A stretch of DNA of 64,000 nucleotides from Sumerlaeia bacterium (GTDB lineage Bacteria > Sumerlaeota > Sumerlaeia > MVZB01), in the NCBI GenBank assembly GCA_041687335.1, contig JAWLCE010000001.1, positions 168,619-232,618 on the forward strand, given 5' to 3'. Shown piece after piece: positions 1,617 through 62,006 of the stretch; position 1 is the first letter of the stretch, and every line of letters starts with the position of its first letter. Below the pieces are notes generated by a model. It had not been told where the DNA came from. It worked only from the letters and a program-made list of their open reading frames with translations, and did not search any database. A program made the position numbers and the translations under genes.

Positions 1617-3092
1617 ATGTGCAGCGAATTGTTAAGAGTGGGCTGTGACATGAGGTTGGATTACAAGACGCTGGAGGTCATGCAGAAGCTCAACGCGGCC
1701 TGGCGGCTGTTGCAGTCACCTCATGCGCCGCTGGTGGCCAGCTTTCTGGACCGGGTTTTTCTGGAGCCCAACGTGCGGATGATGGGGCAGGCGGACCTGA
1801 GCGAAGCTCTCGAGGACACGCTGTTCACGCTGCGCGAACAGCGGCCGGGCGCCTACCCGAGGACCGCGCTCGAATACCTCAACGACTGGGCCGATAACGA
1901 GAAAGGCTGGTTGCGCAAGTTCTACGCGGCCGGCTCGGATGAGCCGCAGTTCGACCTGACGCCGGCGGCGGAAAAGGCGCTCAGTTGGCTGGCCAGCCTC
2001 GCCGAGCGCTCCTTCGTCGGCACCGAGTCGCGCCTGTTGACGCTGTTCGAGTTGCTGCGCCAGATGTCGGAAGGCAGCGAGACCGACCCACAGGCGCGGA
2101 TCGATGAGCTGGAGCGGCGCCGCGCCGAGATCGACGCCGAGATCGAGCGGGTCAAGTCGGGCGACATCCCGCTGCTCAACGAGACGGCGGTGCGCGACCG
2201 CTTTCAGCAGTTCCTGCAGTTGGCGCGCGAGCTGCTGGGCGATTTCCGCGAGGTGGAGCACAACTTCCGCCTGCTCGACCGCCATGTGCGCGAGCGGATC
2301 GCGCTTTGGGAGGGGGGCAAGGGCGCGCTGATCGAGCAGATCCTCGGCGAGCGCGACGCCATCGCCGACTCCGACCAGGGGCGCAGCTTCCGCGCGTTCT
2401 GGGAATTCCTGATGTCGCAGAGCCGGCAGGAGGAGCTGACGCGTCTGCTGGGGCGCGTGCTGGAGCTGCCGCCGGTCGCCGAGCTGCATCCCGACGCGCG
2501 GCTGCGGCGGGTGCATTACGACTGGCTGGAGGCGGGCGAGCACACCCAGCGCACCGTCGCCCGGCTCTCGCAGCAGCTGCGCCGTTTCCTCGACGACCAG
2601 GCGTGGCTCGAAAATCGGCGGATCATCGAGATTCTGCGCAACATCGAGTCGGCCGCGCTGGCGGTGCGCGAGGCGCCGCCGGCTGGCCCCTTCATCTCGT
2701 TCCCCGAAAGCTCGGCCGAGATCGAACTGCCGATGGAGCGCCCACTTTTCACCCCGCCGATCCGGCCGGTGCTGCCCGACCTGGAGCTGGAGGCGGGCGA
2801 GGCGGAGGTCGATCTGGCCGCCCTTTACGCCCAAGTCGCGGTGGACAAGCTCGAGCTGGAGGGCAACATCCGCCGCTCGCTGCAGGCGCGCAGCCAGGTC
2901 GCGCTGACCGAATTGCTGGCCGAGCATCCGCTGCGCCACGGGCTGGCCGAGCTGGTGGTCTATCTCCACCTGGCCGCCGAGTGGCCCCATGTGGTGGTGG
3001 ATGAAGAACGCGCAGATGTGGTGGAATGGTGGTCCGACGAAGGCACGGTGCGCCGCGCGCGCCTGCCGGGAATTCTTTTTGTCAGAAGCTGA
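1617..3092 (+). CDS. jetA: Wadjet JetA (DUF3375-like; MksF/kleisin-like subunit)
   Basis: A 491-aa ORF whose N-terminus (LDYKTLEVMQKLNAAWRLLQSPHAPLVASFL) matches the DUF3375 pattern as I recall it. It is first in a four-gene co-directional cluster with JetB, JetC and JetD. Its stop overlaps the jetB start (TGATG at 3090-3094). An alternative start lies at 1650. Confidence 0.8.
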   Translation: MCSELLRVGCDMRLDYKTLEVMQKLNAAWRLLQSPHAPLVASFLDRVFLEPNVRMMGQADLSEALEDTLFTLREQRPGAYPRTALEYLNDWADNEKGWLRKFYAAGSDEPQFDLTPAAEKALSWLASLAERSFVGTESRLLTLFELLRQMSEGSETDPQARIDELERRRAEIDAEIERVKSGDIPLLNETAVRDRFQQFLQLARELLGDFREVEHNFRLLDRHVRERIALWEGGKGALIEQILGERDAIADSDQGRSFRAFWEFLMSQSRQEELTRLLGRVLELPPVAELHPDARLRRVHYDWLEAGEHTQRTVARLSQQLRRFLDDQAWLENRRIIEILRNIESAALAVREAPPAGPFISFPESSAEIELPMERPLFTPPIRPVLPDLELEAGEAEVDLAALYAQVAVDKLELEGNIRRSLQARSQVALTELLAEHPLRHGLAELVVYLHLAAEWPHVVVDEERADVVEWWSDEGTVRRARLPGILFVRS

Positions 3093-3715
3093 TGATGGAT
3101 CCGTCCTTGGAAAATTCCACGGCCACCGCGCCGCAGCTTGGGCAGGTCGTCGTGCCGCTACTCAAGGGGGTGATTTACCGGGATGCGAATCCCGAGCCGT
3201 GGAAGGCGCTGCTCGCGCTGCAGATGACGGTGCGCGAGTATGTTGCCGTGCTCGGGCTCGAACTGGAGCTGGACGAGGCCGAGGGGTATGCCTTTCTTCG
3301 CTCGCGCTCGGGGGAAGTCGCCGAGCAGCCCGAGGCGCCGCGGCTGGTGGCGCGCCGCCAACTCTCCTTCCCCGTCAGCCTGCTGCTGGCGCTGCTGCGC
3401 AAGAAGCTGGCTGAATCTGACGCCGGCGGCGGCGAGACGCGGCTGGTTCTTTCCCGCGACCAAGTCGTTGAGATGATCCGCGTCTTCCTGCCCGAGGGGA
3501 GCAACGAGGCGCGGCTGGTCGACCAGGTCGATCAGCACATCAAAAAAATAGCCGACCTGGGTTTCGTCCAGGAGTTACGCGGGCCGGAGAAGGTCTTCGA
3601 GGTGCGGCGCATCATCAAGGCCTTTGTCGACGCGCAGTGGCTTGCCGAATTTGAGCAGCGGCTGGCCGCCTATCGCGACCATGCCGCCGGCCGGAGCGAG
3701 CAGGACGATGCATGA
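3092..3715 (+). CDS. jetB: Wadjet JetB (DUF4194-like; MksE-like subunit)
   Basis: About 207 aa, acidic and helical (VVVPLLKGVIYRDANPEPWKALLALQ...). It sits between the DUF3375-like gene and the SMC-like ATPase. Its start overlaps the jetA stop and its stop overlaps the jetC start. Confidence 0.8.
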   Translation: MMDPSLENSTATAPQLGQVVVPLLKGVIYRDANPEPWKALLALQMTVREYVAVLGLELELDEAEGYAFLRSRSGEVAEQPEAPRLVARRQLSFPVSLLLALLRKKLAESDAGGGETRLVLSRDQVVEMIRVFLPEGSNEARLVDQVDQHIKKIADLGFVQELRGPEKVFEVRRIIKAFVDAQWLAEFEQRLAAYRDHAAGRSEQDDA

Positions 3716-6700
3716 ACTGGAAGAGCTGAGCCTGGATTTCATCGCCGATGATACGCAGGCCGGTTTCCGGCTGCGCCGGCTCGAGGTCTTCAACTGGGGC
3801 ACCTTCGACGGCCGCGTCTGGACGCTACGGCTGGACGGGCGCAACGGGCTCCTGACCGGCGACATCGGCTCGGGCAAGTCGACGCTGGTCGATGCGCTGA
3901 CGGTCCTGCTCGTTCCAACTCAGCGCATCACGTTCAACCGCGCAGCCGGCGCCGACACCCGCGAGCGCACGCTGCGCAGCTACGTGCTCGGCCATTACAA
4001 GTCCGAGCGTAATGATCTTTCGGGCAGCTCGCGGCCGGTTGGGCTGCGCGATCACAACAACTACTCGGTCATCCTCGGCGTGTTCCACAACGAGGGCTAC
4101 CAGCAGACGGTGACGCTGGCCGTCGTGTTTTACTGGGGCCAGAATCCGCAGGGGCAGCCCGAGCGGCTTTATGTGGCGAGCGAGGGGGACCTCTCGATTA
4201 CGAGCGAGTTCTCGCGGTTCGGTTCGATCGCCGCGCTGCGCAAGCGGCTGCGCGCCGCGGGCGCCGAGTGCCACGACAGTTATCCGCCCTACGGCGCGTG
4301 GTTCCGCCGGCGTTTCGGCATCCAGAACGAGCAGGCGCTCGACCTGTTCTACCAGACGGTCTCAATGAAATCGGTGGGCAACCTGACCGACTTCGTGCGC
4401 GGGCACATGCTCGAGCCGTTCGCCGTCGAGCCGCGCATCAAGGCGCTGATCGAGCACTTCGACGATCTCAACCGCGCGCATGAGGCAGTGCTCAAGGCCC
4501 GGCGCCAGATCGAGCTGCTCACGCCGCTGGTGAATGATTCCGTCCGGCATGCCGAACTGACCGCCGAGACCGAACGGCTGCGCGGCTGTCGCGAGGCGCT
4601 CAAGCCATGGTTCGCAGGCCTCAAGGCCCTGCTGCTCGACCGCCGGATCGAGTCACTGGCCGAGGACGCCGCCCGCCAGCAGGCGAAGAACGACCGGCTC
4701 GAGGAGCGGCAGCGAGCGCTGCGCACGCAGGCCGTCGAGTTGCAGGCCAGCATCTTCGAGCAGGGCGGCAACCGGATCGAACAGCTCGAGCGTCAGATCG
4801 CGCAGCGGGAAATCGAAAAGCGGGCGCGACTGGAGAAACATGGGAGATACGTGGAACTGGCCGGGGCCGCCGGCATCGCGCCGGCCGATGGCGACGAGGC
4901 GTTTGTCGTGCAGCGGGGCGAGATCGAGGCACTGCGCGAGGCGGCCGCCGCACGCGAAAGCGAGCTGCAAAACGAGCTGACCGAGCAGGAAGTGACCATG
5001 CGCCAGGGGCGCGAGGAGCTGCGCCTGCTGACGGTCGAAATCGACAGCCTGAAGGCGCGCCGCAGCAACATCGACTCGACCCAGGTCAAAATCCGCGAGG
5101 CCTTGTGCGCCGCGCTGGGCCTGGAAGAGCAGGACCTGCCCTTCGCGGGCGAGCTGATCCGCGTGCGCGAGGAGGAGCGTGACTGGGAGGGTGCGATCGA
5201 GCGCGTCATGCGCAACTTCGGCCTGTCGCTGCTGGTGCCCGACGAGGAATACACGCGCGTGGCCGATTGGGTCGATCGGACGCACCTCAAGGGCCTGCTG
5301 GTTTACTTCCGCGTGCGGGGCGACGGCCGCGCGCCGATCCCCACGCCGCACGCGCACGCGCTGGCGCGCAAGGTCGACATCCGCCCTGAATCGCCCTTCT
5401 ATCCATGGCTCGAGCAGCGGATCGCGCAGCGCTTCGACCACGTCTGCTGCGCGACGCAGGAGCAGTTCCGCCGCGAGAGCAAGGCGATCACACGCGCCGG
5501 CCAGATCAAGGCCCCCGGCGAGCGCCATGAAAAGGACGACCGCCACCGGATCGATGATCGCGAGCGCTACGTGCTCGGCTGGGACAACCGGGACAAGATT
5601 GAGGCGCTGGAGCAGAAGGCTCGTTTGCTTGAAGCGAGCATCGCCACGATCGGCGGGCGCATCGCTGCACTGCAAAAGGAACAGCAGGCCATCAGTGAAC
5701 GGCGCGCGGCGCTTGACAAGCTCGGTGAGTATCGCAGCTTTCAGGAGCTGGACTGGAAGCCTGTTGCACTCGAGATCGAGCAGCTCAAGGAAGAGAAACA
5801 GCGGCTCGAGGCGGCCTCGGACCTGCTCAGGGCGCTGACGGAGCGGCTGCGCGCCGTCGAGGCCGACGAGACGGAGGTCAATCGCGAGATCAAGGAACGG
5901 ATCGCGAGGCACAGCTCATTCGTTGAGAAGCGGGCGGCGGCGGAGGAGTTGCGCCGGCAGGCGCGCGAGACGCATGAGGCGGGCGGCTCGCTGACTGGCC
6001 ACTATGACGCCCTCACTGCGCTGCGCGCCGAGGCGCTCGGCGACCGGCAGCTCACCGTCGAATCCTGCGACAGCCGCGAGCAGGAGATGCGCGAATGGCT
6101 TCAGGCCCGCATCGACGCTGAGGACAAGCGCCTGCAGCGGATGCGCGACCGCATCATCGACGCGATGCGCTCCTACAAGGAAGAGTTCAAGCTGGAAACC
6201 CGCGAAGTGGACGTTGCCATCGAGGCGGCCGGCGAGTACGGCGCGATGCTCAGCGAGCTTGTGGGCAACGACCTACCCCGCTTCGAGCGGCGCTTCAAGG
6301 AATTGCTCAACGAGACCGCCATCCGCGAGATCGCCAACTTCCACGGTCAACTGGCGCGCGAGCGCGAACAGATCCGCGAGCGGATCGACCGCATCAATGC
6401 CTCGATGACACAAATCGACTTCAACCCGGGCCGTTACATCCGGCTCGAAGCCGAGCCGACACACGACACCGAGATCCGCGACTTCCTCACCGAATTGCGC
6501 TCCTGCACCGAGGGCGAGCTGACCGGCTCGACCGACGAGGAATACACCGAGAAGAAATTCCTGCAGGTCCGCAAGATCATCGAGCGCTTCCGCGGCCGCA
6601 CCGGCCTGAGCGAGATCGACCGCCGCTGGACAACCAAGGTGACCGACGTGCGCAACTGGTTCGTCTTTGCCGGCAGCGAGCGCTGGCGCGCCGACGACAC

Positions 6701-44097: not shown

Positions 44098-45675
44098 TCA
44101 GTTGTGCGCCGGCCGGCGCCAGATGATCGTCGAGCCGATCTGGTCCACCGGCTCATAGCCAGCCTCAACCAGCAGGCTCTCATAATAAAATCGGCCGCGC
44201 CCCGACTCACGCCCAGTCCAGATCCCCGCCACCACCAGTTCATAGTCGCCGCCGCGGATCGCCGCCTCAAGCTCGGCCTCGGTCATCAGGCCCAACCGTC
44301 GCGATTGCTCCGCCGAATCCAGCCGCTCGACCATCCCGGCAAAGTGATTGTGCAGACCCCCGACAATCTCGGCTCGAGTGCCGATCAAATATCCTGGCCA
44401 CCAGCTCATGACCGGCGCCCCCGGCGGGGCCAGCTCGTCGATCCGCCGCCCGACCCAACGCACCACCCCCGGCCGCAGGTCGTATTCCGTGACTTCCAGC
44501 CAGAATTCGCGGCTCTCCTCGACCTCGCCCCCGCGCCAGTAACGCTGGAACGAGCCGTGGGCCGAGACGGCGGCCACCAGCAGCAAAATCGCCAGCGCCC
44601 CAACACGCAGTCCGGTCCGGCGCAGCCCGCGCCAGGCCTCGGCCGCCGCCGGCGCCGCCAATAGCAGCAGCCACGGCGTCGCCAGCGCCAGGTATTGCAG
44701 GAACGGCCGCACCCCGATCGAGGCCGTCCCGACGAGCGCCGCCAGCGCCAGCACGAGGAACCCGTCCTCGATCCGCCACGCAGGCCACCGCCGCCACGCC
44801 CGCCACAGCGTCAGCGCCACGGCCAGCACCCAGGCCGGCTGTTCGATGAACTGGCGACTCAGTGCCGGCAGGTTGGTCATCAACCGTCGCGCCAGCGAGG
44901 CATCGGCCCCCAGTTGGTGAATCCACCAATTGCCATACATGAAAGATTCGGGCGCCTGCGCGTGAAACCAGCCGAGCAGCAGCAGCGGCGGAATCCAACC
45001 GGCGACAAAGCACAGCGCCGGTCGCCAGCTCACCCACCGCCGCGGCCAGCCCTGCGCCAGCAGCGCCAGTGCCATCAGCATCGGCAACGGCGCCACCGTC
45101 AGCCGCGTCAGGATCGCCAGCCCCGCCAGCACGCCCCCCAGCCAAAGCCGCCACCAAGATCGCGCCTCGCCATCAGGCCGCGCCAGCGCCCACGCCCCCA
45201 ACAGCATCAGCGTCGCCAGCCCATAGACCTTGACCGTGATCCCCCAGGCAAAGCCGATATCGGCGCTCAGGTAGATCGCCAACCACGCCGCCGCAACACC
45301 CAGCGAACCCCCGCGCCGCCAGCAGAGCCAGCCAAAAATCAGCGCCCCCGCCCACGCCACCAGCGCCGCCATCGCGCGCGCCTGAATCCAGTCCACCCCG
45401 CCCGCCAGCCAGCCGGTCCCCCCCCACAGCAGCGGCACCAGCGGCATTTGCGGAAAGAAGAAATCGCGGTAAAGCACGCCGCCCTCACTCACCAGGCGGG
45501 CGGCATAGAGGTAATAGGCCTCGTCGGCATCCACGCGACGGGTTGCAGCCAGTCCAAGCAGCCACGCCCCGCTGGCCGCCGCCATCAGCAGCACCGCAAG
45601 CGCCCGGCCCCGTCCCCACGCCGCTAGTGTCCGATCCTCCCGCAAGCCATTTCCCCTTTCGACGGGCATCATCAT
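44098..45675 (-). CDS. GT39/ArnT-PMT-like GT-C membrane glycosyltransferase
   Basis: Multiple TM segments and a first-loop DE motif (VDADEAYYLYAARLV) typical of GT-C (PMT_2/ArnT-like) enzymes. The C-terminal ~120 aa are soluble. The track start at 45699 is TTG; I prefer the ATG at 45675. Confidence 0.6.
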   Translation of the reverse strand: MMMPVERGNGLREDRTLAAWGRGRALAVLLMAAASGAWLLGLAATRRVDADEAYYLYAARLVSEGGVLYRDFFFPQMPLVPLLWGGTGWLAGGVDWIQARAMAALVAWAGALIFGWLCWRRGGSLGVAAAWLAIYLSADIGFAWGITVKVYGLATLMLLGAWALARPDGEARSWWRLWLGGVLAGLAILTRLTVAPLPMLMALALLAQGWPRRWVSWRPALCFVAGWIPPLLLLGWFHAQAPESFMYGNWWIHQLGADASLARRLMTNLPALSRQFIEQPAWVLAVALTLWRAWRRWPAWRIEDGFLVLALAALVGTASIGVRPFLQYLALATPWLLLLAAPAAAEAWRGLRRTGLRVGALAILLLVAAVSAHGSFQRYWRGGEVEESREFWLEVTEYDLRPGVVRWVGRRIDELAPPGAPVMSWWPGYLIGTRAEIVGGLHNHFAGMVERLDSAEQSRRLGLMTEAELEAAIRGGDYELVVAGIWTGRESGRGRFYYESLLVEAGYEPVDQIGSTIIWRRPAHN

Positions 45676-45710: not shown

Positions 45711-45789
45711 CGGACCGAAGTGGCAGGTGGGGTCTTCAACTCGACGTGGCATCCAGTGTCGGCTCGAAGAGCCGACCTGCCTTGCCCGC
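45711..45789. repeat. intergenic repeat element copy A (~80 nt, contains perfect hairpin GTCGGCTC-GAA-GAGCCGAC at 45757-45775)
   Basis: It aligns at ~80% identity with 58860-58938 (cggacc..tggcaggt.gggtct..aac.cgac..gg..cagtgtcggctcgaagagccgacct.cc.t.cccgc). Confidence 0.55.
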
Positions 45790-45791
45790 AT

Positions 45792-45844
45792 GAAAAACAA
45801 AGGGGCGGCCGATGCGCCTGGGTTCATCGCGCATCGCCCGCCCC
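45792..45844 (-). terminator. Rho-independent terminator downstream of phoA-like gene
   Basis: On the minus strand, a 16-bp GC-rich stem (GGGGCGGGCGATGCGC ... GCGCATCGGCCGCCCC, one mismatch, 11-nt loop) is followed by TTTGTTTTTC. It lies 20 nt after the phoA-like stop. Confidence 0.55.
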
Positions 45845-45864: not shown

Positions 45865-47112
45865 TTACTTGGCCTCGGAGACGACCGCCGTGGCCTCACC
45901 GGCCAACCAGGCAGCGAACGCCGCCCGATATTCCTCCTGGACCGGGCCCGCCAGGTCGCGGCCCATCGCGCGCGCCAAGCGCCGCGCCACTTCCGTGTTG
46001 TCCATCATGCCGGCAAACGCCTCGGCGCCCGGCCCCTCTGCAAAGATCGGAACGCTGGCGGCCGAATGCGACCCGCTCGACCAGGTCATCATTTCGATCA
46101 GTTTCTCACCGCGCGTCTGTGCAATCTTTCCCTTCCCGGGCAGCGTCAGCGCGCCGGTCTCGTGATCGGCTGTCACCACAATCAGCGTCTGCTCGCCGAC
46201 CAACTCGCGTGCGCGCGCCACAGCGTTGTCCAGGGCGATCACTTCACGCACGAGCCGCGCCCCATCATTGGCATGCCCGGCATGGTCGATCCGTCCCGCC
46301 TCGACCATCAGGAAGTAGCCCTTGCCGCGCCCCTCGAGCGCGCGAATCGCAAACTCAACCATCTCGGCCAGCGACGGCTCCTCCTGCGTCCGATCCAGCT
46401 CATAGCTCATGTGGTCGGCGTGAAACAGGCCCACCACCCGCTGGTCGGCAGCCTTCGGGTCGAGCGCCAGCAGCTCCGTGCGCGAGCCGACCATGGTCCA
46501 ACCCGCCTGCGTCAGCTCGTCCACCAGGTCACGGTTGTCCTTCCGCTTGCCGGTGGTGCTGGTCGCCTCATCCCGCCAGTTTGCCCCACGGAAAAAGGCC
46601 TTTCCGCCGCCCAGCAGCAGCGTCAGCTCCGAGCCCGCCACCTGTTCGGCGATCTCCGTCTCCAGACCGCGCGAGCTTGAGTAGGCATAAAAACAGGCCG
46701 GGGTGGCATGCGTGACCCGCGCCGTTGAGATCACCCCCACCGCTCGCCCCTGCGACCGCGCCAGGTCCGTCAACCGCTCCAGCGGCCGCGCCTGCCCGCT
46801 GGGGTCAATCCGCGGGTCGGTCATTGAAATTGTGCCGTTGTTGGTCTTGGCCCCGCAGGCCAGGGCGGTGCCGGCCGCCGCCGAATCGGTCACAAAATCG
46901 CTGGTGCTCCAGGTGCGCGTCATGCCCACCACCGGCATCCGCTCCATTGCCAACTCGCCGGCCGAGCCATGCGCAAACAAACGCCCCGCATCCACCTGCG
47001 CCGGCCCCATGCCGTCGCCGATGAACAGGATTACATTGCGGGTCTCTGCCCGCCCCTGCGGCGCCCACGCCAGCGCCAGCAGCATGATCAAACAAACCCT
47101 ATGCATCTTCAT
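45865..47112 (-). CDS. alkaline phosphatase (PhoA family), secreted
   Basis: A signal peptide (MKMHRVCLIMLLALAWAPQGRA) precedes the metal and nucleophile region ILFIGDGMGPAQV...TDSAAAGTALACGAKT. The track start at 47220 is too far upstream; I place the start at MKMH (47112). Confidence 0.85.
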   Translation of the reverse strand: MKMHRVCLIMLLALAWAPQGRAETRNVILFIGDGMGPAQVDAGRLFAHGSAGELAMERMPVVGMTRTWSTSDFVTDSAAAGTALACGAKTNNGTISMTDPRIDPSGQARPLERLTDLARSQGRAVGVISTARVTHATPACFYAYSSSRGLETEIAEQVAGSELTLLLGGGKAFFRGANWRDEATSTTGKRKDNRDLVDELTQAGWTMVGSRTELLALDPKAADQRVVGLFHADHMSYELDRTQEEPSLAEMVEFAIRALEGRGKGYFLMVEAGRIDHAGHANDGARLVREVIALDNAVARARELVGEQTLIVVTADHETGALTLPGKGKIAQTRGEKLIEMMTWSSGSHSAASVPIFAEGPGAEAFAGMMDNTEVARRLARAMGRDLAGPVQEEYRAAFAAWLAGEATAVVSEAK

Positions 47113-47139
47113 TCTATGGTCCCTTCGAAAGCATTTTTG

Positions 47140-47180
47140 ACAGCAGATTATAACCGAACGCGGAATGAGAGGAAAAGTGA
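47140..47180 (-). promoter_or_regulatory. putative phoA promoter: perfect -10 TATAAT (47147-47152, minus strand) with CTGTCA Pho-box-like half-site just downstream
   Basis: On the minus strand the sequence reads GGTTATAATCTGCTGTCAAAAATG, about 30 nt upstream of the RBS GAAGGGA and the ATG. Confidence 0.3.
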
Positions 47181-47381
47181 GGAATTGACGAGAATGGGCA
47201 CGTTTTAATTCGTGGCTCAACGCGAACCCACGGATGCGCTGCTCACCAAGCCCCGACGGGGCGGCCGCAAGTAGCCGTGGGTGACCGCGGGGAACCCACG
47301 GTCAATCGCCTAACAAACCGAGCCCCGAAGGGGCGATTGATTGTTGCGGAGATTGAATTCCACCAAAGATCGGCCGCCGGC

Positions 47382-57117: not shown

Positions 57118-58722
57118 TCATGGATTGACATAATCCATCTGCTGGGAGTGATTCCACGAGCTCGGATCAGGGGCGTCGGCCAGGTAATGGCAACCGCGGC
57201 TGGTGCGGTTCTGCAGCGCCGCATAAAGCACCGCCAACGCCGCCTGGACCCCATTTCGCAGGCCGATCAGGTCGTCGTCCAGTGCCGTGCGCCCATAGAA
57301 GGCCTCGATCTCCTGTTGCAGCTCCCGCAGGATCCGGTTGGCCCGTTGCATGCGCCGCTGGGTCCGGGTCAGGCCGACGTAGTTCCACATCGTGTACCTG
57401 ATGGTCATCCAGTCTTGCAAGATCAGTGCCGGATCGGCCGGCTCGCGCTCGGGCACCCACGGGTCGATTGGCGGCCAAGAGGGCGCCGACTGCTTGCGCC
57501 GGTCCATGATCGCCCCGGCCGCCCGCAACCCGAAGACCAGCCCCTCCAGCAGCGAGGTTGAGGCCAGCCGGTTCGCACCGTGCATCCCATTGCAGGCCAC
57601 CTCGCCCACCGCCCAGAGCCGGTCGATCGAAGTGCGGCCCTCCAGGTCGGTCATCACCCCGCCGCAGGAGTAATGCGCCGCCGGCACCACCGGGATCGGC
57701 TCGCTGGAGATATCGATGCCCAGCTTCAGGCACTGCGCGTGGATCGTCGGGAATCGCTCACGCACCCAGCGCGTCGGCTTGTGGCTGATGTCGAGCCAGA
57801 CGCAGGGCTCGCCGGTCTCGAGCATCTCCTGGTGGATGGCGCGCGCGACCACGTCGCGTGGCGCGAGCGACCCCAGCGGATGATGGCGCGCCATGAACTC
57901 ACTGCCGTCGCGCCGCACCAGCCGGCCGCCCTCCCCGCGCATCGACTCGCTGACCAGGAATCGCGGGGCATGAGGGTGATAAAGCGCCGTCGGGTGGAAC
58001 TGGACATACTCCACGTTCAGCAGTCGCGCCCCCGCGCGATAGGCCATCGCGATCCCGTCCCCGCGCGCCCCGTCCGGATTGGTGGTGTGCAGGAAAAGCT
58101 GGCCCAGTCCCCCCGTGGCCAGCACCGTGTGGCGGGCCATGATCGTCTCGACGCGGCAGGCATCGCGGTCGAGCACATAGGCCCCCACGCAGGTGTTGGG
58201 CTGATAAATGTCCAGCGGGCGGCGCGAGTGGTGCGAAAGGGTCAGAAGATCCACCGCCACCCAAGGCCGCAGCAATGTGATGCGGGGCTCCTCGTCGACG
58301 GCCCGCCACAGCGCCTCATGGATGCGCTGCCCCGTCCGATCCTCGCAATGCAGGATCCGCGGCACCGAATGGGCGCCCTCCTCGGTCACGTCATACTCGC
58401 CGTCGGGGCGGCGGTTGAAGTCGATGCCCAGCTCCTCGATCAGGACGCGCCGGACCGCCTCGGGACCCTCTTCGGCCAGCACCCTGGCCGCCGGTGGCCA
58501 GCTCAGCCCCGCCCCCGCCGTCACGATATCGCGCTCGAGCAGCTCGGGACTGTCGCCCGGCCCGGTATAGATGATGCCCCCCTGGGCCCAGCGCGTATTG
58601 GTGCGCTCGACGTCATGGCTGCGGTGCAGCATCAGCACCCGCGCGCCCGCCTGCGCCGCCTTGAGCGCCGTGATCGCCCCTGCAATCCCGCCTCCAATGA
58701 CGAGGACGTCTGTCTCGAGCAT
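57118..58722 (-). CDS. nadB: L-aspartate oxidase
   Basis: The N-terminus has FAD-binding DVLVIGGGIAGA. The active-site region (RPDGEYDVTEEGAHSVPR, HPTA) and typical length (~530 aa) are consistent with NadB rather than SdhA. Confidence 0.85.
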   Translation of the reverse strand: MLETDVLVIGGGIAGAITALKAAQAGARVLMLHRSHDVERTNTRWAQGGIIYTGPGDSPELLERDIVTAGAGLSWPPAARVLAEEGPEAVRRVLIEELGIDFNRRPDGEYDVTEEGAHSVPRILHCEDRTGQRIHEALWRAVDEEPRITLLRPWVAVDLLTLSHHSRRPLDIYQPNTCVGAYVLDRDACRVETIMARHTVLATGGLGQLFLHTTNPDGARGDGIAMAYRAGARLLNVEYVQFHPTALYHPHAPRFLVSESMRGEGGRLVRRDGSEFMARHHPLGSLAPRDVVARAIHQEMLETGEPCVWLDISHKPTRWVRERFPTIHAQCLKLGIDISSEPIPVVPAAHYSCGGVMTDLEGRTSIDRLWAVGEVACNGMHGANRLASTSLLEGLVFGLRAAGAIMDRRKQSAPSWPPIDPWVPEREPADPALILQDWMTIRYTMWNYVGLTRTQRRMQRANRILRELQQEIEAFYGRTALDDDLIGLRNGVQAALAVLYAALQNRTSRGCHYLADAPDPSSWNHSQQMDYVNP

Positions 58723-58859: not shown

Positions 58860-58938
58860 CGGACCACAATTGGCAGGTCGGGTCTGTAACCCGACAGGGG
58901 CTTCAGTGTCGGCTCGAAGAGCCGACCTACCCTCCCCG
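58860..58938. repeat. intergenic repeat element copy B (hairpin GTCGGCTC-GAA-GAGCCGAC at 58897-58915; second hairpin TCGGG-tctgtaa-CCCGA)
   Basis: Paralogous to 45711-45789. It lies between nadB (minus strand) and the tandem array (plus strand). Confidence 0.55.
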
Positions 58939-58959
58939 CTTACGAATCATTCACGTGGG

Positions 58960-58989
58960 GTTGACAACTTGGCCGCCGCGCTTGTCTAT
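58960..58989 (+). promoter_or_regulatory. putative promoter (TTGACA at 58960-58965, -10-like TCTATT ~18 nt downstream), duplicated at 60080-60109
   Basis: A perfect -35 hexamer is embedded in the duplicated leader. It is followed by the strong SD GAGGTGGGGG and an ATG 40 nt downstream. Confidence 0.3.
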
Positions 58990-59028
58990 TTATGGCTGGA
59001 AACGTGCGGCAGATGAGGTGGGGGACGA

Positions 59029-59709
59029 ATGAAATTCAGCCCGGCTCAAGAAAAAATCGTGCAGAGGGCAGGTCTCCTCATGATCCCGATGCTATTCATC
59101 GGCTGGGTCCTGTATTTTTTTCTCCTTCGCAAAATTCAATCCGCAGATGCCGATCTGCCGCTTGAGACCGCAATTTTCTGGATACGGGAATCCATCGTCT
59201 GGAGGAGACTTTTCATCCCTCTGCTGACGCTCAACCTGATCGGCATTTTTTGCACTCTGCTGGCCTTGTCCTCCGAGTCCCTCACTCAATTGAGACGGAC
59301 CTTTCTGAGCATGATCATGGCCCTTGGAATCTTGGTGTTACTCGCTTCTGTCTCACTCATGAATTTTCTAATTCAACACAGTATTCCTGAGGCCATCAGC
59401 AGCGTCTGGGATAATAACAGGGCCGTCAGTCTTGCGATCTATGAATACCACATGATCCACGGCAAGTATCCAGACTCCATTGATGATGTGGTGCCCTATT
59501 TAGATGAATATTTCAGCATTTACGATGCATTTACTGGTGGTCGCGAAAAACTCTGGATCGGTCATACGCCCCAATATGTTGGGCTTTTCAGCGTCGGGCC
59601 CGACATGGAGCGCACCAACGAAAAGGGAGCCGTGCCGACCATACACTATGATCCAACCAACGGCACATACAGCAGCGGCGATCTTGTGACCCGTATATCT
59701 GAGGATTGA
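59029..59709 (+). CDS. membrane-anchored pseudopilin-like protein, paralog 1 (3 TM + GspG-like C-terminal domain)
   Basis: Three hydrophobic helices are followed by SLAIYEYHMIHGKYPDSIDDVVPYL ... SVGPDMERTNEKGAVP ... DPTNGTYSSGDLV. This resembles the globular domain of type II secretion pseudopilins (GspG) but has no class III prepilin leader. Confidence 0.6.
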   Translation: MKFSPAQEKIVQRAGLLMIPMLFIGWVLYFFLLRKIQSADADLPLETAIFWIRESIVWRRLFIPLLTLNLIGIFCTLLALSSESLTQLRRTFLSMIMALGILVLLASVSLMNFLIQHSIPEAISSVWDNNRAVSLAIYEYHMIHGKYPDSIDDVVPYLDEYFSIYDAFTGGREKLWIGHTPQYVGLFSVGPDMERTNEKGAVPTIHYDPTNGTYSSGDLVTRISED

Positions 59710-59755
59710 CCATCCAGAACATTATCAGCAATCAGCCGGAGTGGAGTTCGTCATC

Positions 59756-59990
59756 ATGCGCGCAATCTGGATGATATGTCTGACGTCGGCGGTCATCGCG
59801 CTCGGGCCGGATTGCCTGGCGACAGTGCTGGGAGTTACAACGCCGGAGAGGTATCCTTGGCTATATGGCGATTGTCATGAATCCCTTTACTTGCGTTTGG
59901 GCCCCAAGCTGCGGACTTTTGTGTCGCCCGCAGCTTAAATGGCGCCCAACCGCGGCTGCCCGGCTCGAACAGATCCACCTAGGTGGTGCC
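59756..59990 (+). pseudogene. decayed 5' fragment of GH5 gene (copy 1 of duplication)
   Basis: MRAIWMICLTSAVIALGPDCL matches the signal peptide of the intact GH5 (MLRAIWMIGLTSAVMALGPGCL). Downstream, PTAAARLEQIHLGG matches PAATARLEAIQLDEDG but in a shifted frame. Similarity is then lost. Confidence 0.55.
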
Positions 59991-60147
59991 GACCCACCCT
60001 CCCCGCCCCGTGCTGCGGTCGCACGCGACGACGGATCAATTTCATGGTTTCATTCTCCATACGAATCATTCACGTGGGGTTGACAACTTGGCCGCAGCGC
60101 TTGACTATTTATTGGTGGAAACGTGCGGCAGATGAGGTGGGGGACGA

Positions 60148-60849
60148 ATGAAATTCAGCCCGGCTCAAGAAAAAATCGTGCAGACGGCAGGTCTCCTCAT
60201 GATCCCGATGCTATTCATCGGCTGGGTCCTGTATTATTGTCTCATTGGCATTATTCAAAACGCGAACGCCGATCTGCCGCTTGCGAACGCACATTTCTGG
60301 ATACGGGAATCCATGGTCTTGAGGAAACTATACATCCCCTTGCTGGCGATTTGCGTGATCGGCATTTTTGGCGCTAATCTGTCATTATCCTCTGATTCCA
60401 TCACCGAATCGAGACGGACCGTGCTGGACATGATCATAACGCTTGGGATTTTTTTGTTGCTCGGTTCTCTTTGGTTCATAAATGGACGGATTGAATCCAA
60501 CATCTATGAGGCCATCGGCTGCGTCGGGAATAATCACAGGGGCGTCAGTCTTGCGATCTATGAATATCACATAATCCATGGCAAGTACCCAGACACCATT
60601 GATGACGTGGTGCCCTATTTAGATGAAAATTTCAGCATTTACGATGCTTTTACCGGCGGTCGCGAAAAACTCTGGATCGATCAAACGCCCCAACATGTCG
60701 GGCTTTTCAGCGTCGGACCCGACATGGAGCGCACCAACGTAGAGGGAGCCGTGCCGATCATAGACTATGATCCAACCAACGGCACTTTCAGCAGCGGCGA
60801 TCTTGTGACCCGTATTGAGAACCCAGCAACTTGGCGGCATCAGCCGTAG
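60148..60849 (+). CDS. membrane-anchored pseudopilin-like protein, paralog 2
   Basis: Versus paralog 1, the N-terminal 30 aa are ~97% identical, the C-terminal domain ~85-90%, and the central TM2-TM3 region only ~55%. Confidence 0.6.
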   Translation: MKFSPAQEKIVQTAGLLMIPMLFIGWVLYYCLIGIIQNANADLPLANAHFWIRESMVLRKLYIPLLAICVIGIFGANLSLSSDSITESRRTVLDMIITLGIFLLLGSLWFINGRIESNIYEAIGCVGNNHRGVSLAIYEYHIIHGKYPDTIDDVVPYLDENFSIYDAFTGGREKLWIDQTPQHVGLFSVGPDMERTNVEGAVPIIDYDPTNGTFSSGDLVTRIENPATWRHQP

Positions 60850-60860
60850 TGGAGTTCCTC

Positions 60861-62006
60861 ATGCTGCGCGCAATCTGGATGATAGGTCTGACGTCGGCAG
60901 TCATGGCGCTCGGGCCGGGTTGCCTCGGGACGGGCGCTGCCCTCGGCCGATCGCCGGCCGCGACCGCCCGACTCGAAGCGATCCAACTGGATGAGGATGG
61001 GCTGCATTTCATCCGGTCCGGTTCGCGGGAGCGGTTCTTTGTCTGGGGGGTCAACTATGACCGCGACGATGCGGGGCGGCTGCTCGAGGATTATTGGATC
61101 GGGGAGTGGGCCACCGTCGAGGAGGACTTTCGCGAGATCGTTGCGCTGGGGGCGAATGTCGTCCGGATCCACCTGCAGCTGGGCCGGTTCATGGCGCAAC
61201 CCAACGCGCCCGATCCGCTGGCCCTGGCGCAACTGGCGCGCCTTGTGAGGCTGGCCGAGCAGACCGGGCTCTACCTCAACATCACCGGCTTGGGATGCTA
61301 TCACCGTCAGGACGTGCCCGACTGGTACGACGGCTTGCCGGAAGCGGACCGCTGGGCCGTGCAGGCCCGCTTCTGGGCAGCCATCGCCAGGACCTGCGCC
61401 GGCAGTCCCGCCATCATGTGTTACAACCTGATGAACGAACCGATCCTGCCCGGGCGAGACCCCGAATCCGATTGGCTGGCGGGCGATCTGGCGGGGAAGC
61501 ATTACGTCCAGCGGATCGCGCTGGACCTCGCCGGCCGCACCCGGGAGCAAGTCGCCCAGGCGTGGATCGACCGGCTGGTCGAGGCGATCCGCGAGCATGA
61601 CAGCCGGACCCTGATCACCGTCGGCGCCATACCCTGGGCCATGGTCTGGCCCAAGGCCAAGCCGATCTTCTATGACCCGGAGGTGGCGCGGAACCTGGAC
61701 TTCGTCAGCGTCCACATCTATCCCAAGGAGGGCGAGGTTGAGCAGGCGCTCGCCGCGCTCGCCGTCTACAAACTGGAGAAGCCCCTGGTCATCGAGGAGA
61801 TCTTCCCGCTCAATTGCAGCATCGAGCAGATCGAAACATTCATCGGCCGCTCCCGCGACCGGGTCGACGGCTATATCAGCTTTTATTGGGGAAAAACAAT
61901 CGAGGAATACGCGCAGGAAGAGGGGCTCACTGCCGCGATCATGCACAGCTGGCTGACATGGTTCCGCGAGCATGCCACAGCTACAGGCCCCGGTCTGGAT
62001 GGCTGA
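60861..62006 (+). CDS. glycoside hydrolase family 5 (cellulase-superfamily) lipoprotein/secreted enzyme
   Basis: A signal peptide with LGPGC is present. The GH5 catalytic acid/base region is CYNLMNEPILPG (NEP motif) and a nucleophile-region candidate is PLVIEEIFPL. Confidence 0.75.
   Translation: MLRAIWMIGLTSAVMALGPGCLGTGAALGRSPAATARLEAIQLDEDGLHFIRSGSRERFFVWGVNYDRDDAGRLLEDYWIGEWATVEEDFREIVALGANVVRIHLQLGRFMAQPNAPDPLALAQLARLVRLAEQTGLYLNITGLGCYHRQDVPDWYDGLPEADRWAVQARFWAAIARTCAGSPAIMCYNLMNEPILPGRDPESDWLAGDLAGKHYVQRIALDLAGRTREQVAQAWIDRLVEAIREHDSRTLITVGAIPWAMVWPKAKPIFYDPEVARNLDFVSVHIYPKEGEVEQALAALAVYKLEKPLVIEEIFPLNCSIEQIETFIGRSRDRVDGYISFYWGKTIEEYAQEEGLTAAIMHSWLTWFREHATATGPGLDG

Follow-up and report, generated by a model that had tools for sequence, protein, structure and literature searches.

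Two intergenic copies of an inverted pair of GTAG-tagged palindromes, probably a REPIN-type element, in a 64-kb bacterial genome window

Two copies of an intergenic element and the genes around them

The window analysed here is a stretch of 64 kb of bacterial DNA with a GC content of 65.5%, and it contains two extragenic regions, both between ORFs, that share a short conserved element in the same orientation. Copy A spans positions 45711-45789 (plus strand), exactly as given in the first-pass annotation that reported the element, and copy B spans 58860-58939 (plus strand), which is one nucleotide longer than reported, the result of a 1-nt indel between the two. The whole conserved unit, as seen in copy A, comprises a doublet of REPs with conserved sequence on either side of it, ca. 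12 nt to the left and 9 nt to the right. In a pairwise alignment the copies are identical at 77% of the columns inside the element, and their flanks are unrelated. Since the similarity ends at the borders of the element and the flanks cannot be aligned, we exclude that the resemblance stems from a longer duplicated segment including coding sequence, a reading that had been considered when the element was first described. The core 25-mer CAGTGTCGGCTCGAAGAGCCGACCT, said to be identical in both copies, is indeed an exact match at 45754 and 58904; these are its only two occurrences in the window, both on the plus strand, and none of 100 dinucleotide-preserving shuffles contained a match, even with 3 mismatches tolerated.

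A search of the 64 kb with nhmmer, using a profile built from copies A and B, found no further full copy, and the window holds two full copies and one relic. A generic scan of the window for other GTAG-tagged palindromes gave seven matches, to be compared with 2.4 +/- 1.5 in shuffles, and three of the seven are the already known arms of copies A and B. There is no direct repeat or target-site duplication in the immediate flanks of either copy. Furthermore, no T-run lies 3' of either hairpin on either strand, in agreement with the reported lack of a U-tract, and therefore the element does not have the makings of an intrinsic terminator.

Copy A is preceded, in the direction of transcription, by an alkaline-phosphatase-like gene (45865-47220, minus strand; Pfam Alk_phosphatase). 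The intrinsic terminator of this gene (45793-45844, minus strand) is a GC-rich hairpin followed by UUUGUUUUU, which folds at -41.9 kcal/mol (z = -3.75), and copy A starts just past it. On the other side lies the gene of a 525-aa membrane protein (44098-45675, minus strand), with 35 nt between its ATG at 45675 and copy A. This start is confirmed by a 525-aa NCBI protein (P0001) that matches the entire ORF with 100% identity. That identical protein is also the sole close relative of the ORF in the databases. The name GT39 previously given to the gene is acceptable only in a loose sense: the ORF itself has no Pfam match at E<=0.001, and PF13231 (PMT_2) is carried by its distant homologues, at 28-43% identity. 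We thus refer to it as a distant PMT_2/ArnT-like homologue. The loci of these distant homologues contain no copy of the element.

Copy B lies between divergent genes: nadB, encoding L-aspartate oxidase (57118-58722, minus strand), and a 226-aa ORF (59029-59709, plus strand). It is 138 nt upstream of the nadB start, and the interval includes a promoter-like site for nadB (58811-58784, minus strand), a consensus match whose function is putative. Both placements, copy A between a terminator and a gene start and copy B between nadB and a duplicated cassette, are as originally described. The cassette is duplicated in tandem, with a first copy at 58941-59823 (plus strand) that begins 1-2 nt past the end of copy B and a second copy at 60060-60931 that is 84.6% identical to the first. 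The relic (59961-60006, plus strand) precedes the second cassette copy by 53 nt; it is a decayed partial third copy of the element corresponding to the right-arm REP. It consists of CGGCTCGAA, an 18-nt insert and GCCGACCCACCCTCCCCGC, and its last part (59988-60006) is 95% identical to 58921-58939 of copy B. The insert itself contains a palindrome, CCACCTAGGTGG. Copy B before the first cassette copy occupies the place equivalent to that of the relic before the second. The relic would go back either to a duplicated unit that once took in some of the doublet or to another REP standing at this place. The suggestion that the element is linked to the duplication gains some support from the boundary just past copy B and from the REP relic before the second cassette, and a causal role of the REP in the rearrangement of the cassette is possible.

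Anatomy and folding of the doublet

In each copy, two 23-nt palindromes stand in inverted orientation on either side of a conserved 12-nt spacer. The consensus of each palindrome is an unpaired G(T/C)AG on the outer end, followed by GTYGGNTC-loop-GANCCGAC. The first-pass annotation had described a single perfect 8-bp hairpin with the stem GTCGGCTC/GAGCCGAC; this stem is real, but it makes up only half of the unit, and a second hairpin in the 5' half had been overlooked. In copy A, the left REP (45723-45745, plus strand), recognised from the sequence and the family alignment, is of the G-type and decayed. Its GCAG is followed by GTGGGGTC-TTC-AACTCGAC, and the stem includes one G-G mismatch, a C-A mismatch at the loop-closing pair and one G-T pair. 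Because of this decay, copy A may be immobile. Then come the 12-nt spacer GTGGCATCCAGT (45746-45757) and the right REP (45758-45780, minus strand), which is of the C-type, with GCAG followed by GTCGGCTC-TTC-GAGCCGAC in a perfect 8-bp stem. In copy B, the left REP (58873-58895, plus strand) is of the G-type, with GCAG followed by GTCGGGT-CTGTA-ACCCGAC in a perfect 7-bp stem; the 12-nt spacer AGGGGCTTCAGT occupies 58896-58907; and the right REP (58908-58930, minus strand), of the C-type, has the canonical GTAG before GTCGGCTC-TTC-GAGCCGAC and is the same sequence as the commonest 23-mer of the metagenomic family described below. The CAGT adjoining the right REP in the spacer is kept in both copies. 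Across the window, the tag is GCAG in three of the four arms and GTAG only in the right arm of copy B, and the C-type and G-type arms are distinguished by complementary pairs in stem position 6 (C:G vs G:C).

The 61-nt doublet folds either as a single long imperfect hairpin or as two small hairpins. Folded as RNA and compared with shuffles, it gives z = -5.0 to -5.7 in three of the four combinations of strand and copy, and z = -2.9 for the plus strand of copy B; as DNA, the doublets give z = -3.6 to -4.5. Covariation across copies, which had been proposed as a check, is found in the family: among 19 distinct units, the sixth pair of the stem is G-C in 12, C-G in five and T-A in two. The stem cells are paired in 95% of cases, vs 16-48% in slid controls, a percentage inflated by the pre-selection of units for at least 7 of 8 pairs, which cannot, however, create three pair types at one position. 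This is compensatory change in the REP stem.

These traits can be set against those of known repeats. GTAG-tagged REPs have been grouped in a superfamily of 24 families in 8 phyla (Di Nocera, De Gregorio & Rocco 2013, PMC3733652). According to that paper, their units have 20-40 bp, with stems of 6-13 bp and short loops; the GTAG degenerates to GYAG in some families; and complementary residues in the stem set the sub-families apart. The members of a dimer are separated by 1-100 bp, the HH arrangement (tags outside) being the commonest and heterodimers being frequent, and the units are preferentially extragenic, are known to form tandem clusters and typically reach tens to hundreds of copies. 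With its 23-nt units, 7-8-bp stems, 3-5-nt loops and unpaired GTAG/GYAG end tag, the element is like the superfamily in stem, loop, tag, GYAG decay, HH heterodimers, spacing, extragenic location and tandem clusters. Against this stands the position of copy B between divergent genes, a less usual one, since the REPs of PMC3733652 favour unidirectional and convergent gene pairs. The sequences GTAGGTCGG, GTAGGTTGG, GTCGGCTC, GAGCCGAC and GTCGGGTC have no occurrence in five text supplementary files of PMC3733652, and its abstract and three of its sections do not name Sumerlaeota/BRC1 as a REP host.

REPINs are inverted REP doublets that form hairpins and constitute a replicative unit, sometimes in tandem arrays (Bertels & Rainey 2011, PMC3116915). 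The element has the two inverted REPs, the short spacer (12 nt) and the predicted single long hairpin, in ssDNA or RNA, that characterise the REPINs of Pseudomonas fluorescens SBW25; its conserved unit is likewise the whole doublet with spacer and short flanks, and arrays are present in relatives. In contrast to the REPINs and RAYTs of SBW25, a cognate RAYT was not found among the loci searched here. A 5' GTAG at the foot of the hairpin is bound in a base-specific manner by TnpA-REP and is needed for cleavage (Messing et al. 2012, PMC3479197). The element shares such a 5' tetranucleotide at the foot of a hairpin with the REP/BIME of E. coli, as well as the BIME-like alternation of orientation within arrays, but the sequences are unrelated and the E. 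coli stems are longer, imperfect and bulged, whereas those described here are short and perfect. Finally, an analogy may be drawn with the subterminal hairpins of IS200/IS605, which would extend to the hairpin with a 5' tetranucleotide guide, to ssDNA recognition of the HUH Y1 type and to the lack of target-site duplications. There are differences from IS200/IS605, since no transposase gene lies between the arms here and the arms are near-identical inverted copies and not distinct left and right ends.

The family in metagenomes and RAYT genes in related genomes

The 19-nt hairpin was found in 81 contigs of JGI/ENA metagenomes, representing 67 distinct sequence contexts. GTAG stands exactly 5' of the hairpin in 28 of these 67 contexts, where ca. 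0.26 would be expected by chance, and at least 11 of the 28 have an inverted G-type partner, GTAGGTTGGGTC...GACCCGAC, at a distance of 2-81 nt, in the same tags-outward heterodimer as in the window. Single arms occur as well, and in some contigs the doublet forms tandem arrays with periods of 86-90 nt, e.g., four tandem doublets with an 86-nt period in L138 (2678-3027) and an array with a 90-nt period in L119 (125-498). The array in L138 directly adjoins a tRNA-Leu(GAG) gene (3032-3118, minus strand), the 3' end of which is no more than ca. 5 nt away. A CRISPR-like reading of the arrays was rejected because their "spacers" are conserved and their units are alternating inverted REPs. More than 20 contigs of another Sumerlaeota-type metagenomic population carry the REP family. 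An exact scan of 185k GTDB representative genomes, a set without the source genome or species, did not find the 21-mer core, and viral contigs scanned with the hairpin and with the 5' half of the element gave no match.

Other repeats were seen in the same material. The 19-nt hairpin is present, without the GTAG tag, within another conserved element, GTCGGCTCTTCGAGCCGAC-CGGACAGCCGAGGGCGGCTGTCCCCACA, found in contigs with a GC content of 57-60% (L081, L092, L101, L153, L108, L115, L132, L137 and L155), where it lies upstream of the start of a conserved gene; it gives the impression of a distinct family of repeats or regulatory elements. A further type of GTAG palindrome, GTAGGGTGGGTCTTGACCCACC, occurs in pairs in L151 (9915-9990) and L109 (10515-10610), which belong to the same metagenomic population. 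An unrelated 93-nt tandem repeat (TGTCATTTCGAAGGAGCGCAACGACTGAGAAATC...) is present in L119 (4767-5126) in ca. 3.9 copies with 91% identity, and a sequence similar to it comes after a REP in L117 and L122.

The nearest relatives of the window's nadB are unclassified MAGs (79% and 72%), followed by Candidatus Sumerlaeota MAGs (68% at most). The main metagenomic carrier of the family, represented by the Ga0116193/Ga0208826 contigs and the MAG GCA_964529205.1, has a GC content of ca. 55%. Among the listed homologues of its AspRS, all those named beyond "bacterium" are Candidatus Sumerlaeota, Sumerlaeia or Sumerlaeaceae. A fragment of its nadB is only ca. 51% identical to that of the window, and the carrier has no nucleotide similarity to the window outside the REPs. 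Judging from these two marker proteins, the REP family appears to be common to diverged members of one candidate phylum.

We then compared orthologous sites. In all 80 nadB loci of relatives, including one at 79% amino acid identity, the region upstream of the gene lacks the element; in the locus of the closest nadB relative (L001), this region holds another gene and a terminator, and the synteny differs from that of the window. In the carrier MAG, a doublet is located between the rhomboid and rmuC genes (L172, 13635-13722); in L166, at 81% AspRS identity, the gap between these two genes is 50 nt long and has no REP. As far as can be told from sequences, this pattern of presence and absence would fit a mobile element and not a conserved regulatory RNA, in genomes so distant that gain and loss are indistinguishable.

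RAYTs are thought to mobilise REPs. The window has no RAYT detectable with an HUH-motif regular expression, tblastn or phmmer, and the same searches over all the fetched loci and the window gave only two Y1 genes, one in L119 and one in L093/L112. The gene in L119 (7871-8476) matches NCBIfam REP_Tyr_transpos with 81.5 bits (cutoff 80), and also Pfam Y1_Tnp. It encodes 201 aa, and the region around it (L119, 7829-8590) is the same as 11900-12640 of L172-L174. This RAYT is inserted between aspS and the rhomboid gene, is missing in L166 and L171 (81-85% AspRS identity), and is flanked by a different GTAG REP, GTAGTGTGGCCTTCAGGCCATAAG, of which one flank has a single copy and the other has two. 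The second Y1_Tnp gene (176 aa, in the region 5400-6260 of L093) has copies of a third repeat, GCAGTAGCCCGAGCGTRAGCGAGGGA, on either side, inverted relative to each other. A homologue of the L119 RAYT in a BRC1 MAG is flanked by yet another inverted repeat. The search for homologues of the L119 RAYT returned no protein from the window's contig. RAYT genes do occur in Sumerlaeota, and none of those among the loci searched is flanked by REPs of the GTAGGTCGG family, the RAYTs of related contigs being flanked by other repeat families. In L093 there is also a hybrid dimer (4495-4550), in which a C-type REP is joined to a different GTAG palindrome, GTAGGTCCTCCCCGCCGAGGAGGAC; together with the third repeat, it indicates that the carrier organism holds several REP families.

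A probably mobile doublet and its alternatives

We consider it likely that each copy is a REP doublet, i.e., a REPIN-type non-autonomous mobile element of the GTAG-tagged superfamily in the form of an HH heterodimer. It would thereby be a new member of an already known class of small selfish bacterial repeats, found in a lineage that has received little study; it does not represent a novel type. The expression "REP/MITE-like dispersed repeat" used in the first-pass annotation can be retained in its first part, strongly supported by the inverted GTAG-tagged palindromes, and is very improbable in its second.

The other possibility raised at that time, a small structured RNA, may be extended to a cis-regulatory leader, for instance a 5'-UTR element shared by nadB and the PMT_2-like gene. 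Both copies are indeed upstream of minus-strand genes, 35 nt and 138 nt before their ATGs; on either strand, shuffled sequences fold significantly less well than the element; and some stems include G-T pairs. However, a number of arguments make such an RNA unlikely. First, Rfam 15 has no match at the gathering level in the whole window and no relevant match at E<=10 at the two loci, where the overlaps have E>1 and are at chance level. Second, there is no orthologous conservation, as illustrated by the 80 relatives that lack the element upstream of nadB. Third, copy B lies between divergent genes and upstream of the promoter-like site of nadB, which, if functional, puts the element outside the nadB mRNA. 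Fourth, the same sequence family stands beside dozens of unrelated genes and in tandem arrays. Fifth, the tags have a symmetric arrangement on the two strands, an argument for recognition of the DNA itself.

The element could also be a MITE derived from an IS with a DDE transposase, in which case the outer inverted repeats of ca. 10 bp, GGCAGGTCGG / CCGACCT(G/A)CC, would be the terminal inverted repeats. Inverted-repeat ends, a size of ca. 60-80 nt and an extragenic site all fit this description, yet we hold it to be very improbable: neither copy has the flanking target-site duplication of a MITE, the arms are palindromes in their own right and carry GTAG-type tags, and the single arms and head-to-head tandem arrays of the family are the behaviour of REPs and BIMEs. 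Palindromes are also typical of protein-binding sites, and an operator-type site for a host DNA-binding protein has to be weighed. Gyrase binds E. coli REPs. E. coli REPs are also reported to bind IHF (PMC3479197). The presence of the family in so many unrelated genomic contexts and organisms is nevertheless unexpected for a gene-specific operator, and we give this explanation very little credit. Binding by a host protein could be a secondary property of REPs, in which case it does not compete with the REP assignment. It is just as improbable that the element is left over by chance from a local segmental duplication: copy B does adjoin a duplication, but the flanks of the two copies are unrelated.

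If each copy is a REPIN-type doublet, its mobility could be modelled, by analogy, on the TnpA-REP of E. coli and the REPINs of Pseudomonas. On ssDNA, each REP would form a hairpin of 7-8 bp, at the 5' foot of which the G(T/C)AG stays unpaired; the other option would be one long imperfect hairpin made of the entire 61-nt doublet. Recognition of the hairpin and the GTAG on ssDNA would fall to a HUH/Y1 transposase (RAYT) whose gene would be present as a single copy in another part of the genome; this enzyme would cut and rejoin the strand, so that the doublet would spread into extragenic DNA without target-site duplications. We infer this RAYT-driven mobilisation from the analogy, and with it a presumably high copy number in this genome and putative effects at the level of the host, such as the protection of mRNA ends, insulation or recombination between copies.

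The near-invariant 23-nt unit GTAGGTCGGCTCTTCGAGCCGAC and its constant G-type partner appear to be common to deeply diverged Sumerlaeota-type genomes. A tentative interpretation, which we would not press, is that they reflect either a very long co-persistence of REPIN and RAYT throughout a candidate phylum or horizontal spread, and that a REP arm may have seeded the duplication of the cassette. With its REP relic, the boundary of the duplication illustrates on a small scale how repeats mark local rearrangements and possibly mediate them. For genome annotation, the consequence is that intergenic hairpins of this kind should not be taken for riboswitches, sRNAs or terminators. Our analysis flags a REP/REPIN population in an uncultured lineage apparently related to Sumerlaeota, and, if the family and its cognate RAYT turn out to be phylum-wide, they would offer one more case in which to test the long-term vertical persistence that has been proposed for REPIN-RAYT systems.
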